64,000 nt of DNA, taken from the IMG/VR virus record IMGVR_UViG_3300020416_000002. One strand, given 5' to 3'. Each line of letters begins with the position of its first letter. Positions within the stretch are counted from its first letter, which is position 1. The notes beneath the pieces are model-generated. The model was given only the letters and a program-made list of their open reading frames with translations. It was not told where the DNA came from and searched no databases. Positions 39,657 to 57,300 of the stretch are shown piece by piece. The position numbers and the translations under genes are program-made. The stretch is from a virus.

Positions 39657-40847
39657 TTATTTAGTGACAGTAGAGATAGCAGGCAAACCTTGATTGAAAA
39701 TAGTATCAACAACTGCTTCAACTTTGCGAGCAGTGGATACACCTACATTAGAGTAAACTGGGACACATACGAGACCGAATACTTTAGTCTCATCACCTTT
39801 ACGAATAACTCTACCGATTGTTTGACTGATACCTATGTAATCCATAGAACGCAAAAACAATACTGCTTCAAGTCCATTGACATTGATACCTTCTGAGAGT
39901 ATGCTGTGATGGAGTACAACAAAACGAGTTTTGTCTTTACCCCATGCATTTAGTTGCTCAAAGAACTTGTCACGATTGACTTTTTTACCATTGATGATTG
40001 CACCAGTTTTTGCTGTGATGTACATCCAATTGTAACCACGCTGAGATAGTTCATAACAAAAATCAGTGTGAGTAACTAGATTTACAATTTGCTTAGTTGA
40101 CTTTGCACAAATGAGCACTTTATGCTTTTTGATGTTGTCAAGAGACTGCAGCATTTGCTCTGAATCTACATCAGCAACCAACTCATCTTTTTTGAGCAAA
40201 CGAGAGGTATAAACTTCTACCTTTGGTGGTAGAATGTAACCTTGATCTACAAGAAGAGGAGCGGGAACCTGACATATTACATTGCCATACACTGCTGTGT
40301 CATTCATACCTGCCTTGAAAGGTGTTCTAGAGTGTTTTGGAGTGGCAGTGAAGAAATAACAACGCTGAGCATTAGCAGCGAAATGCTCTGTAGCAGGGAA
40401 GAAGTTTTTTTGAACTGAGTTGTGTGCTTCATCAAAGTAAATAGTGTCAACATTTAGGTTAGCATCGACAACTCTACGCAAACTGTGATAAGTTGTGAAG
40501 ATGAAGCGATGGCATTGCATTTGGGAGCACATCACATCAAATAATGCGATCTGCTTTGCATTTGTTGTGCTGAAATGCTTAGTCTCACCACTGTGGATGT
40601 GTGCAGGCACGACATCAGGACGAGCAAAACCATCGAACTCTAGAAATTCCTCGCACAATTGCTGTGCAAGTAGAATACGAGGAGCAACAACAACAAATGT
40701 CAATGGATGAGTAGACTCATTCATTTTTGTAATTGCATCAGTGATCATGCATGCAGTCTTACCACCACCAGTAGGAATAATTACCTGACCTAAGTCATTG
40801 TTACTCATTGCATTGACTGCTTCAATTTGATGGGGACGAAGTTGCAT
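39657..40847 (-). CDS. SF2 (DEAD/DEAH-box, ResIII-like) helicase
   Basis: LRPHQ, PTGGGKT, DEAH, TAT and QTIGR motifs. Confidence 0.9.
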   Translation of the reverse strand: MQLRPHQIEAVNAMSNNDLGQVIIPTGGGKTACMITDAITKMNESTHPLTFVVVAPRILLAQQLCEEFLEFDGFARPDVVPAHIHSGETKHFSTTNAKQIALFDVMCSQMQCHRFIFTTYHSLRRVVDANLNVDTIYFDEAHNSVQKNFFPATEHFAANAQRCYFFTATPKHSRTPFKAGMNDTAVYGNVICQVPAPLLVDQGYILPPKVEVYTSRLLKKDELVADVDSEQMLQSLDNIKKHKVLICAKSTKQIVNLVTHTDFCYELSQRGYNWMYITAKTGAIINGKKVNRDKFFEQLNAWGKDKTRFVVLHHSILSEGINVNGLEAVLFLRSMDYIGISQTIGRVIRKGDETKVFGLVCVPVYSNVGVSTARKVEAVVDTIFNQGLPAISTVTK

Positions 40848-40869
40848 AAACCTTGATTGCTATACATGT

Positions 40870-40927
40870 ATTATGACATAAAAAAAGCACCCTGTAAAGG
40901 GTGCTGTGCCACTTCAAAGACTGTCTA
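40870..40927 (-). promoter_or_regulatory. Early promoter with palindromic element and terminator hairpin
   Basis: GTGCCAC-N8-CTGTCTA; AGCACCCT-TTAC-AGGGTGCT+T6; CATAAT 30 nt from the element. Confidence 0.7.
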
Positions 40928-41056
40928 GAACAGGACTGCCCATACCCAAACAACAACAAGAGTATAAATCAGGAAGTTACGCTGTTCCTTGACAGACTCA
41001 CTCTTTTGAACGGCATCAAATAATTCTGCCTTAGTGTTCTTGAGTGATAGTTTCAT
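40925..41056 (-). CDS. 43-aa C-terminally anchored membrane peptide (not in ORF track)
   Basis: MKLSLKNTKAELF..FLIYTLVVVWVWAVLF, directly downstream of the structured RNA. Confidence 0.6.
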   Translation of the reverse strand: MKLSLKNTKAELFDAVQKSESVKEQRNFLIYTLVVVWVWAVLF

Positions 41057-41082
41057 AAAGCAAAGTATGTAAGTGTGAGATA

Positions 41083-41284
41083 AATGTGGTTAAGAGAGTG
41101 GGGCAATGATCTGGGTTTCACCCATGTTGCCCAAATTTACCCTATGGGAATCGCTTACACCTGTACCCCTACTGAACTAGCAAGTAATCATATAAGGAAT
41201 CTTAGTAGGATAACCCCACAATCCAAAATGATTGAACCCTTGCTATCGTTCGGGCATAGGAACCACATATCCCTTAACCACATT
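41083..41284 (-). ncRNA. Candidate ~200-nt structured non-coding RNA or cis-regulatory leader
   Basis: Perfect 12-bp terminal inverted repeat, several nested helices, and an early promoter placing the TSS at the 5' arm. Confidence 0.7.
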
Positions 41285-41287
41285 CTT

Positions 41288-41345
41288 ATTATAGCAAGTC
41301 CATGTCCTTACGCTGGTGACCTTGTGACACTTTATCAACTGTCTC
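41288..41345 (-). promoter_or_regulatory. Early promoter with palindromic element, driving the RNA
   Basis: GTGACAC-N8-CTGTCTC 30 nt from TATAAT (41288-41293). Confidence 0.75.
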
Positions 41346-41480
41346 CCACCAAGGGTGTTTCCACTCGGCACTAACTGGTTTCTCCCATGTGTCAGAATTA
41401 CTTTCTACCCACCTTTTTAGAGCGTAATATCTATCCTTCCATGTTTGTGCTTCCTCCTTTAAGATTTGCTCTGTGTTCAT
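41289..41480 (-). CDS. Hypothetical protein
   Basis: 63-aa ORF. Confidence 0.55.
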   Translation of the reverse strand: MNTEQILKEEAQTWKDRYYALKRWVESNSDTWEKPVSAEWKHPWWETVDKVSQGHQRKDMDLL

Positions 41481-41668
41481 AGTTGATCTGAGATTAAAAG
41501 TGATGGATTGCCAAGTTGAACTTCGATTTCATCGAAAATTCTTTCAAGAGTGTTTGACATATTATTGTAACCAGTTCCAACATAGATTTGACCCACTACC
41601 ACTGCAGCAGTGCAAATACCCCAGAACCTATAATATGCTGATGATTTGATTTGATTTTTTTTAGACAT
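41477..41668 (-). CDS. Small membrane protein
   Basis: AGGAGG RBS; YYRFWGICTAAVVVGQIYVGTGY. Confidence 0.7.
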   Translation of the reverse strand: MSKKNQIKSSAYYRFWGICTAAVVVGQIYVGTGYNNMSNTLERIFDEIEVQLGNPSLLISDQL

Positions 41669-54321: not shown

Positions 54322-57300
54322 TTATTTATCTTTGATGTCATCAACTTGTTGTGACAAGTCTTTGACTGCCTCAATTAGTAGAGGTATTAGTTTATTATAG
54401 TGGACACCTTTAGTGCCGTCAGGTTTTGTTGATACTGCCTCAGGTAGAACCTTCTCTACATCTTGAGCAATGACACCAATGTCATGTCCAGTGTAGTTTT
54501 TGTTATTCTTCCAGTCATACTCAGTACCACGAATTTGCATAACTTTAGAAATAGGATCATCTAGTGTGGATACATTTTCTTTAAATGCAATGTCAGAGGT
54601 TTGACCATAGAAGGCAATAATATCATCACAGAAATGAACAGGACCACCACAGAATGTAACTCCAGCACCACTATGGAAGAAGTCTCCACTAAATGTAGTG
54701 AATCCAGTAAATTCAACATCTTGATTAAATGTTACTGGTGCATCATAAGCGGTATCAGTTGCAATTGCAACCTTAAAGCCTGGTGCTGCATTAAGAACCA
54801 GATCACCAACACCAAACTTAGTTGTAATCTCAGTCTTATTAGTACCAACACCAATTTTAACATTGTTGATGTTTGCACCGCTAGGGAAGGAACCAGTAAA
54901 TTCAATTGTACCAGCAAGTTCAATACTACCACTAGATACAACCTTACCAGTAAAGTTTACATCATTGGTAAATGTAACAGGACCATCAAACTGTGACAGG
55001 ATATTTTGTTGAGCACCACCCTCAACATTAATTCTTTGTTTGACTGTAATTTCATCAACAACAATAGAGTTAGCAGATGGATCCTCACCTGTAATGGTAG
55101 GAATAGGAATATCAAATGATTTTTCCTGTCCAGTAGCAGAGTTGATCTTCTTATTACCAATGAAGAAATCACCTCTGTTATTTAAACCAGTGTATACAAC
55201 AGTACCACCACTTCTATTTTGTGCTTGAGATAGATATTCCTCAACCTCAGTTAGTGATCTATTCTGAACCTGAGGTAGTGATGTTGAATAGTTACCAGGA
55301 CCATAACCAAGATATTCAAATGTGTGACCCGACGCTCTTAAGATAGATGGTCTTCTAGTTTCCACCGCAAGAATATTCATTTTCTTGAGAGGAGTTCCAA
55401 TAGGGTAAGATTTAGGAATTGTTCCCATTTGACCTCTGAGAACACTGAATGAATCATTACCAGCACCACCAAGTCCAGTAGATGAAACTCTAACAATCTC
55501 GTTTCCAATTTCTAAGTAATCACCAAGTTGGAATCTGTTTGCAGTTCCAATACCACTAGCATGTTGTACAGGGAATGAGGTATCTGTGTTAGCAACATCA
55601 GTCTTAAGACCAACCATGTCACCACCATAGAACTGTACAAATCTAGATCCAATCGCCTCATTGATATTAATCTTCTGATCATGATCAGAGTGTGCATGTC
55701 TCAGGATCTTGAATGTGCTACCCGCACCAACAGTAACTTGCGGATCATTTGTAGTTCTAGCAGTAAATGATGTGACACCAGTTGCAATAGCATCAATGTA
55801 GAAATCACCAATCTTAACATTGTCACCATTAATTAAAGTAAATTGATTACCTTGTCTAAGTCCATGAGCAGAATCAGTTACAAATGTAGTAATACCAGTT
55901 GTGGTATCGAACGATGTAGATGAAACACCTAAGGATTGACCAACCACAAATGCAAACTGACCTGAGACCACAGTAGGATCAGTAGTTGTTACACCAATTG
56001 TAAATGAAGTCTCATCCAATACATTTTGAATTACATGATATGTGTCACTAGTATTACCTGTACCAGTAAACTGAACTACATTTCCTACGGCATTAATAAT
56101 AGATGATGTAGGGACACCAATAGATGCACCAGCAAAATTCTCAGGGAATAATGTGGCACCACCTGTGTATCCTGCACCAGGACTTTGAATTGTAAGGTCA
56201 GTGATAAATGTGCTACCAGCACCAACTGTTACAATTGCAGTTGCACCCTGCCAATTACCAGAATTATCAAGTAATCTAACATTGTACTTAGTAGTTTCAG
56301 CAAATCCAACACCACTATTAAATGGTGATAGATTCTCATGCTCTACAAAACCATTGAAGGTATGCATACCCTTCAATTGAATGGTAGAAATACCAGAGGA
56401 TGCAGGGGTGGCACTAGATACAGCAAGTCCAACACCAAATGCGGTGGAGAACTTATTCATTGCCTCTCTAGTAACAGAGTTTAAAATACTATTAGTCTCA
56501 ACCTTACCAATTGGATCTCTTCTTGCAAATGAAACAGATGGTGGTGGATTCTTTCTTATATTGTCTCTATCTAACTGTGGATAGAAATCAGTGATCTGTT
56601 GACTATATTTTTGATTGGTAAACTCTGTGGGTGGTGCATAATCAGATGCCAACACCTCTAATAGATACACACCATCACTCTCATCTTTTTCATATTGAGA
56701 GATAATAGTGGATCTATAAACATCAAAGTTACCTTGATTGTTATTGATACTGAATCTAGGAAGATCTGTTGTTCTGTTTGAGTTCTTCTCTATATAATTA
56801 CCAGTATTTTTCTTGTCACCACTGGTATCAGTATTACTATACTGGAACTCCATGTTGTTAGGAACAGCAGTTACAACATAGAAACCATTGTATCCTTTTT
56901 CTGCAATTGCAGTAGGATTATTAGAGTCAGCGATGTCTTCTGTAAAAACGATATCACCAACTCTGACATTATGAGGTAACTCTGCTCTAACTGTTACAGT
57001 ATCACTAAGTTCACTACATGTAGCAATGAAACTGTACTTTCTCTTAAAGTCATGATCCTTTGCAGTGATACTAGTTGCAGTAATATCAGATGTCTTAGCA
57101 AAACCAGTAGATCCAGTGTTCTGTAACACAAAACCTTGAACTGGATCTCTAGAGTTATCTACCTCTTTGGGAATAACATAGCGTAATTTATATAATTTAT
57201 TTTCAATGCTTCTATTGTCCTCAAATCTCTTGAAGTATGATGGATCTGTCTCAGTAGTAGTATTAACATTAGGGTTGTTAACAATTTCAGAGAAGATTCT

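Follow-up and report, generated by a model that had tools for sequence, protein, structure and literature searches.

The stretch 41081-41284 on the minus strand of the window (the whole 64-kb stretch of DNA analysed, from an uncultured T4-like cyanophage) is a real, conserved folded RNA. Judged by its relatives in sequence collections, it appears to be the single window copy of a structured RNA family of P-SSM2-like marine cyanomyoviruses. The RNA is real, widespread and undescribed, and it has a cultured model phage. The earlier note on this DNA had proposed a promoter-driven, multi-helix RNA with paired ends, and that RNA proved genuine, with strong covariation among its homologues. We put at roughly 40% the probability that it is an autonomous early module, in which the invariant junction and tetraloop offer a putative surface to which a protein or a small ligand would bind. 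Minus is the gene strand for all genes in the region around the RNA, and the features of the unit are listed below in the order of that strand.

41323-41332, minus strand: promoter-associated box of the AAGUGUCACA type, about 30 nt upstream of the -10 hexamer
41288-41296, minus strand: extended -10 promoter, TGnTATAAT (TATAAT 41293-41288, TG 41296-41295)
41264-41284, minus strand: P1 5' strand (outer part 41284-41278, P1a 41277-41270, bulge UAU 41269-41267, P1b 41266-41264)
41255-41261, minus strand: P2 5' strand, 7 pairs with 41146-41140, the outermost a conserved U-G
41249-41254, minus strand: P3 5' strand CCC, with the GAA of a possible loop-E or bulged-G internal loop
41174-41248, minus strand: nested module B inside P3, a long arm with internal loops and its own closing stem
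41200-41220, minus strand: nested module C, a small hairpin with a tail at the tip of module B
41167-41173, minus strand: AGUA and the P3 3' strand GGG
41147-41166, minus strand: junction strand J3/2, including the invariant CAGGUGUAAGCGAUUCC (41163-41147)
41140-41146, minus strand: P2 3' strand
41133-41139, minus strand: junction strand J2/4, UAAAUUU, invariant
41101-41132, minus strand: P4 hairpin with an asymmetric internal loop and an invariant GAAA tetraloop (41119-41116)
41083-41100, minus strand: P1 3' strand (CAC 41100-41098, P1a 41097-41090, outer extension 41089-41083)
40925-41056, minus strand: orphan 43-codon ORF behind the RNA, which may not be a gene
40880-40905, minus strand: intrinsic terminator closing the unit (8-bp stem, 5 GC pairs, U run)

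The MFE of the 216-nt stretch folded was -71.2 kcal/mol (z = -3.4 against dinucleotide shuffles), and equally stable folds appeared in 2 out of 200 shuffles. The perfect 12-bp inverted repeat first noticed at the ends of the RNA (41284-41273 / 41094-41083) is exact, and its suggested extension to about 15 bp was borne out, with two G-U pairs followed by the UAU bulge and three further pairs. The outer extension at 41284-41278 is specific to the window; P1a and P1b covary across the family, and mutual information (MI) also recovers an outer P1 pair. Two further elements read from the letters, the helix CCUAUG/CAUAGG (41260-41255 / 41146-41141) and the hairpin at 41132-41101, are both there. The inner junction of three short hairpins that had been claimed did not hold: the MFE fold has one long arm with internal loops instead. 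As a whole, the window's own helices fit the P1, P2, P3 and P4 of the family.

A covariance model, R1, was built from 26 short relatives and has 128 model positions. When searched against the 64-kb window, it returned a sole match, at 41279-41081 (109.9 bits, E 1.9e-31), which spans positions 1-128 of 128 and carries a 77-nt insert in the P3 loop. In total, R1 recovered 101 copies in 100 sources. In the R1 alignment, which was fitted to the model and is therefore biased towards the structure, 95.3% of the helix cells of 96 distinct copies were paired, vs. 39-55% when the 3' partners were slid by 1-3 columns, and double changes were found in 22 of 33 pairs (325 cells). None of 500 column shuffles matched the observed pairing and covariation values. 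The structure is supported despite the model-fitted alignment, because an independent hexamer test and the MI ranking agree with it. The P2 3' strand occurs as 12 different hexamers, and 113 of 121 copies have the exact complement further upstream, while the best pairs in the MI ranking of the alignment are helix pairs, those of P2 at the top, where 5 of 7 pairs show double changes. RNAalifold, applied to the 26 short copies, recovered four helices unaided, with double changes in 13 of 33 pairs. P3 covaries as well (CCCC/GGGG, CUCC/GGAG, CCUC/GAGG), and so do both helices of P4, whose tetraloop and its closing pair never vary. Pairing was better on the gene strand than on its complement (94.6% vs. 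89.3%, with 155 G-U cells).

The core of the family is, as the covariation shows, a three-way junction formed by P1, a P2-P3 arm and the P4 hairpin with its GAAA tetraloop. P1, the closing stem, has a purine-rich 5' side and a small bulge. On the 3' side, P2 and P3 are separated by a 20-nt strand, and a strand of 7-9 nt then leads to P4. J3/2, the strand preceding P4 and the tetraloop are conserved at 97% or more, with 17 + 9 invariant unpaired bases, and the window carries the invariant J3/2, J2/4 (41139-41133) and GAAA tetraloop. To exclude the bias of the first search string, the invariance of J3/2 was checked with an anchor placed in the other junction and the tetraloop; the approximately 120 true members fetched by this anchor, which lies outside J3/2, all keep the same 15 nt of J3/2. 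MI gave helix pairs only and no tertiary contacts or pseudoknots, since junctions that never vary cannot reveal such contacts by this measure. The window was also searched for a target of the invariant strands, and only 9-11-mers at chance level were found. J3/2 is complementary over 9 nt to what we take to be a universal segment of 16S rRNA; chance alone would give about 0.5 matches of this kind, and this reading was dropped. Readings of single motifs as a 5S rRNA element, a tRNA T-loop, a K-turn or an 11-nt tetraloop receptor were likewise set aside, as none of them fits the covarying secondary structure when compared by eye.

The length of the copies varies across the family from about 125 to 340 nt. 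The P3 loop may be as short as about 10 nt or as long as about 225 nt, and it houses other conserved modules that also occur elsewhere alone. On this comparison, P3 is a hypervariable, tolerated nesting site, and the window copy holds two further independent modules, one inside the other. Module B is also found within P3 of seven other loci; its closing stem covaries, and its tip carries additional variable inserts. The 21-nt unit of module C occurs in other P3 contexts, too (L023, L037). At the base of P3, GAA lies opposite AGUA in 33 copies with a long P3, an arrangement suggestive of a bulged-G or loop-E motif. Placing independent modules inside a single stem is an unusual mode of RNA domain shuffling.

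Relatives of the RNA in phage records always lie within unannotated gaps. In a blastn search of 50,697 such records, its 3' half was found at 78-93% identity in the Prochlorococcus phages P-SSM2 and P-SSM5, and also in four single-cell-derived marine viruses; the coding DNA of the window phage is only about 79% identical to that of its nearest relatives. A 16-nt string of the RNA occurs without mismatch in at least 119 IMG/VR contigs, and among the IMG/VR matches listed there are 94 distinct full-length copies, with two copies in one contig. In the 252 kb of P-SSM2, the model finds the RNA exactly once, in the intergenic space that separates PSSM2_070 from PSSM2_071 (56698-56826). Four long contigs give one strong match apiece, and in one of them there is a weak second match (E 0.008). 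The genomes of 185,579 prokaryotic species gave one match, L123 (CAZRCY010000231.1), in a MAG assigned to a Poseidoniales archaeon. This 1.9-kb contig is almost certainly a mis-binned cyanophage fragment, because it is 99.8% identical to the viral contig behind L021. As far as the collections searched show, the RNA is confined to phages.

The early promoter that had been placed at 41288-41293 is present, and the TG at 41296-41295 makes it an extended -10 promoter. A simple promoter scan did not call it, because its -35 is poor. Transcription is predicted to start at about 41281, approximately 7 nt past the -10 hexamer, so the first transcribed bases would belong to P1. Of 98 distinct upstream contexts, 63 carry, no more than 22 nt from P1, a hexamer that agrees with the -10 at five or more of its six positions; the spacing between the two shows a sharp mode at 6-8 nt (45 cases). 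The remaining contexts, which lack a near -10, have other RNA modules ahead of the core; in about one third of copies, the core is not the first module behind the promoter.

A box of the AAGUGUCACA type stands ahead of the -10 hexamer in most related loci and occurs nine times on the minus strand of the window. These A[ACG]TG[GT]CACA boxes lie at 41323-41332, 40904-40913, ~38502, 37658, 36444, 35845, 34904, 34527 and 1430 (minus strand), about 30 nt upstream of -10 hexamers and often as the 5' arm of a stem-loop. The box looks like a cyanophage counterpart of the PeSL promoter/terminator cassettes considered below. At the other end of the unit, the terminator that had been proposed behind the peptide ORF was found at 40905-40880, where it overlaps the promoter of the helicase gene (a promoter-like site at 40898-40870). 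This gene, at 39657-40847 on the minus strand, encodes a 396-aa protein of the ResIII/DEAD type (phrog_16), and it is its promoter that overlaps the terminator of the RNA unit; in L023, a related helicase gene lies directly behind the RNA.

The 43-aa membrane micropeptide that was thought to follow the RNA did not survive comparison, and we reject it as a conserved micropeptide. Among 5.8 billion proteins, the sole match of the ORF was itself; it belongs to no Pfam or PHROG family, has no tblastn match in about 150 related loci, and shows no nucleotide homologue in related loci. A blastn search with 40850-41500 found relatives for the RNA and for the start of the helicase gene only. With this ORF an orphan, nothing that the window unit produces is conserved except the RNA.

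Elsewhere, too, the RNA always lies in the leaders of early units, on the gene strand, and what follows it differs from locus to locus. An ORF starts within 45 nt downstream in 37 of 99 distinct copies and at 46-120 nt in a further 17; other RNA modules lie downstream in 30 copies, longer leaders in 10, and in 5 the next promoter comes directly behind the RNA with no ORF. The downstream proteins are mutually unrelated (DUF7717, DUF6267, helicase, HNH nuclease, small orphans). Terminator-like sites rarely adjoin P1, the first one lying at a median distance of 435 nt downstream.

One RNA subfamily (L021:121-1026, L029, L032, L073, L097, L103, L127) is followed by a gene that encodes a DUF6267 / phrog_455 protein of some 300 aa and has a -10 of its own immediately after the RNA. 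The protein has a K-Y-D-G motif reminiscent of covalent nucleotidyltransferases (ligases and capping enzymes). It was considered as a ligase-like partner of the RNA and rejected, as a sequence search of the PDB came back empty and the association holds in only about one tenth of copies.

Several of the companion modules could be described. A second module of about 55 nt stands directly after P1 in 21 of 99 copies (L006:6945-7005, L015, L027, L049, L071 and others); its four strands are interleaved like those of an H-type pseudoknot, and inspection by eye shows compensatory changes in both stems. The window lacks this module. A third one, whose ends pair and whose inner loop tolerates inserts, lies behind the core in 9 of 99 copies (L001:1580-1675, which is P-SSM2 56817-56912, L005, L009, L013, L017, L058). 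Modules that precede the core often end in UGUAAGUCC or close variants just upstream of P1 (L001:1440-1460, L005, L013, L017, L034, L047, L058, L077). The UGUAAGUCC signature is similar to a portion of the invariant strand of the core; it may represent a common motif for structure or binding.

No catalogued RNA accounts for this family. At gathering scores, Rfam 15 matched nothing in the window; relaxing the cutoff to E 10 for 40850-41400 brought up no relevant family, and 13 RNA-carrying loci gave no matches at E up to 0.1. The families covered include manA, wcaG, PhotoRC-I/II, glnA, Downstream-peptide, hammerhead and twister, together with pistol, hatchet, HDV-like, 6S and Y-RNA-like. ARAGORN found no tRNA or tmRNA genes in the window. 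The first reading, which had recognised neither a tRNA nor a manA, glnA, wcaG or PhotoRC RNA, was right in this respect. The searchable full-text literature yielded no paper with the diagnostic strings of the RNA; the motif list of the 2023 catalogue of phage structured RNAs (PMC10690425) lay outside this comparison. The RNA is not covered in Steglich 2008 or Lott 2020.

The role that we favour, tentatively, is that of the autonomous early module. Host RNA polymerase would start about 7 nt after the extended -10 early promoter and make the RNA in quantity; the RNA would fold into a self-contained particle and would be the real product of this small unit of early transcription. The specific surface that its tetraloop and invariant junction strands would build could receive a host or phage protein or a small ligand, so that the RNA could serve, early in infection, as a decoy, an aptamer or a binding platform, independently of the following gene and of its exact position in the leader. 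A more specific version, in which the invariant junction is the aptamer or catalytic core of an undescribed class, e.g., one that captures a signal, a metabolite or a host protein, or a new ribozyme, is rather doubtful. No terminator follows P1 closely (median 435 nt), so the RNA would be made as the head of a longer transcript, and processing would be needed for it to act as a free particle. Against autonomy, the start codon within 45 nt in 37 of 99 copies would also suit a role in cis.

The main rival to an autonomous binding RNA is a roadblock to nucleases, in which the compact tertiary fold in the 5' leader would block scanning by RNase E or 5'-3' digestion by RNase J and thereby prolong the life of early mRNA, much as 5' stabiliser hairpins or viral exonuclease-resistant RNAs do. 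We regard it as unlikely, even though P1 sequesters the predicted 5' end, the RNA sits in the leaders of early units on the gene strand, and either a coding region or more transcript lies downstream, the first terminator-like site being so distant. Tandem and nested modules would also be tolerable for an additive obstacle. Yet only one early unit of the many in the window has the RNA, and the genomes and long contigs searched gave one strong match apiece. In the window, nothing but the orphan 43-codon ORF would be protected, and behind five copies there is no ORF at all. The 17-nt invariant single strand exceeds the needs of a simple obstacle; exonuclease-resistant folds do require conserved tertiary contacts. 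Protection of the very 5' end, moreover, fits poorly, because about one third of the copies are not 5'-terminal. The other positional mechanism is a riboswitch, in which the junction would bind a metabolite or signal and the formation of P1 would control the following ORF. Its position in a 5' leader, its aptamer-like core, the invariant junction bases and the covarying stems would all suit this, as would the short distance from P1 to the start codon in 37 of 99 copies and one family of 79-aa genes whose first codons are complementary to the P1 5' strand. The downstream genes, however, have no common theme, other modules separate the RNA from the ORF in 30 of 99 copies, and 5 copies have no ORF. 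Complementarity between P1 and the start has a median of -5.6 vs. -5.4 kcal/mol for control starts, a weak difference (p = 0.03) driven by the one gene family. No terminator adjoins P1, and the short leaders that were read have no Shine-Dalgarno sequence. Start-codon control thus fits poorly, because modules intervene, some copies have no ORF, and P1-start complementarity is not enriched. For these reasons, together with the orphan state of the ORF, the riboswitch-like leader for a micropeptide that had been suggested is not supported, and we consider a riboswitch improbable. With both positional mechanisms in cis fitting poorly, a mechanism independent of position and neighbouring gene is what remains, and a trans-acting or autonomous role is the better-supported direction.

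As for the 79-aa family itself, its ORF starts about 23 nt after P1 (L030, L035, L057, L100, L104), and the codons after its AUG would form a duplex of -10 to -13 kcal/mol with the P1 5' strand. Masking of the start codon by this strand is seen in the one family only and was rejected as a general mechanism; within the family, the pairing could be a local switch.

In antitermination of the HK022 put type, the nascent RNA would stay on the polymerase and cause read-through of terminators between early cassettes. The RNA is promoter-proximal, such action would be independent of gene identity and of the exact leader position, and terminators of the same orientation lie downstream. Nevertheless, read-through would be unnecessary in the window, because the next gene has its own promoter, which overlaps the terminator; the RNA bears no likeness to any catalogued antiterminator RNA in Rfam, and the need for many different nested modules would be hard to explain. 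We find this quite improbable, slightly more so than a riboswitch. A self-cleaving or otherwise catalytic RNA, cutting the leader array into separate pieces, would account for the invariant junction core with its tetraloop, and chained modules would require cutting in order to act apart. It is highly improbable, since there is no match to Rfam ribozyme models even at E up to 10, and no conserved cleavage-site context can be defined at the module borders. Finally, the stretch might not be an RNA at all but a protein-coding ORF, of 96 codons antisense or 31 codons sense, or a site at the level of DNA. The window copy does have ORFs on both strands, one of 96 codons lying on the strand opposite to the RNA. 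The statement that the RNA contains no sense ORF is, taken literally, incorrect, as there is a 31-codon ORF at 41283-41188; it stands in so far as this ORF is not conserved. Frames are open over 90% of the length in only 12 (sense) and 15 (antisense) of 94 copies, and the lengths of the elements (about 125 to 340 nt) are not divisible by 3. Coding on either strand was rejected, since the frames are rarely open and the lengths ignore codons; given also the compensatory changes in the helices and the G-U pairs that favour the gene strand, this last reading is close to refuted.

Among ocean viruses, the T4-like cyanophages that infect Prochlorococcus and Synechococcus rank with the most abundant. 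The RNA lies under a strong early promoter and shows the hallmarks of riboswitch aptamers and ribozymes, namely covarying stems, a GNRA tetraloop and invariant unpaired bases, and its function is directly testable because the cultured model P-SSM2 has exactly one copy. Should the RNA prove to bind a small molecule or a host factor, early host take-over by marine phages would gain a layer made of RNA, and the capture of a small molecule or a host protein would make it an RNA counterpart of protein 'sponges'. The nested and tandem modules would then amount to a mix-and-match RNA toolkit of cyanophages.

Several known systems resemble the RNA in part. HK022 putL and putR consist of two simple stem-loops of about 70 nt. 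They are promoter-proximal folded early phage RNAs that act irrespective of the downstream gene, and it is in position that our RNA can be likened to them. The 5' stabiliser hairpins of the ompA type and the exonuclease-resistant RNAs of viruses have a structured 5' end or a compact junction fold upstream of the RNA that they protect, and viral UTRs can contain tandem modular arrays. The RNA described here differs from both in being single-copy and in sometimes preceding no ORF. ToxI-type RNAs are short tandem repeats, and pseudo-ToxI RNAs are their phage-encoded antitoxin mimics. The likeness to pseudo-ToxI is that of a small phage RNA that putatively binds a host factor independently of its neighbouring genes; unlike it, our RNA is a single complex junction fold.

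The layout of the unit has its own precedent. In T4-type phages, PeSL cassettes are small exchangeable units of the hyperplastic early regions, each set off by sigma-70-like promoters and by stem-loops that act as terminators (Arbiol et al. 2010, PMC2839356). The unit in the window has just such borders, and the RNA shifts between gene contexts like a cassette; PeSL-like promoter/terminator units flank the RNA and probably shuffle it. A PeSL is, however, a promoter with a simple terminator hairpin, whereas the RNA is a 125-340-nt three-way junction that lies downstream of its promoter and has invariant unpaired strands. Closest in kind are manA (RF01745) and wcaG (RF01761), motifs of T4-like cyanophages and marine metagenomes (Weinberg et al. 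2010, PMC2864571), which were described as orphan complex folds, almost only marine and in T4-like cyanophages, and as potential 5' UTRs (PMC2864571). Like them, the RNA is an orphan folded RNA in cyanophage leaders. It matches neither of them in sequence or structure, and while manA and wcaG are tied to genes of sugar, nucleotide and exopolysaccharide functions and to high-light genes, the RNA has no such gene tie and is distinguished by its hypervariable nesting stem.
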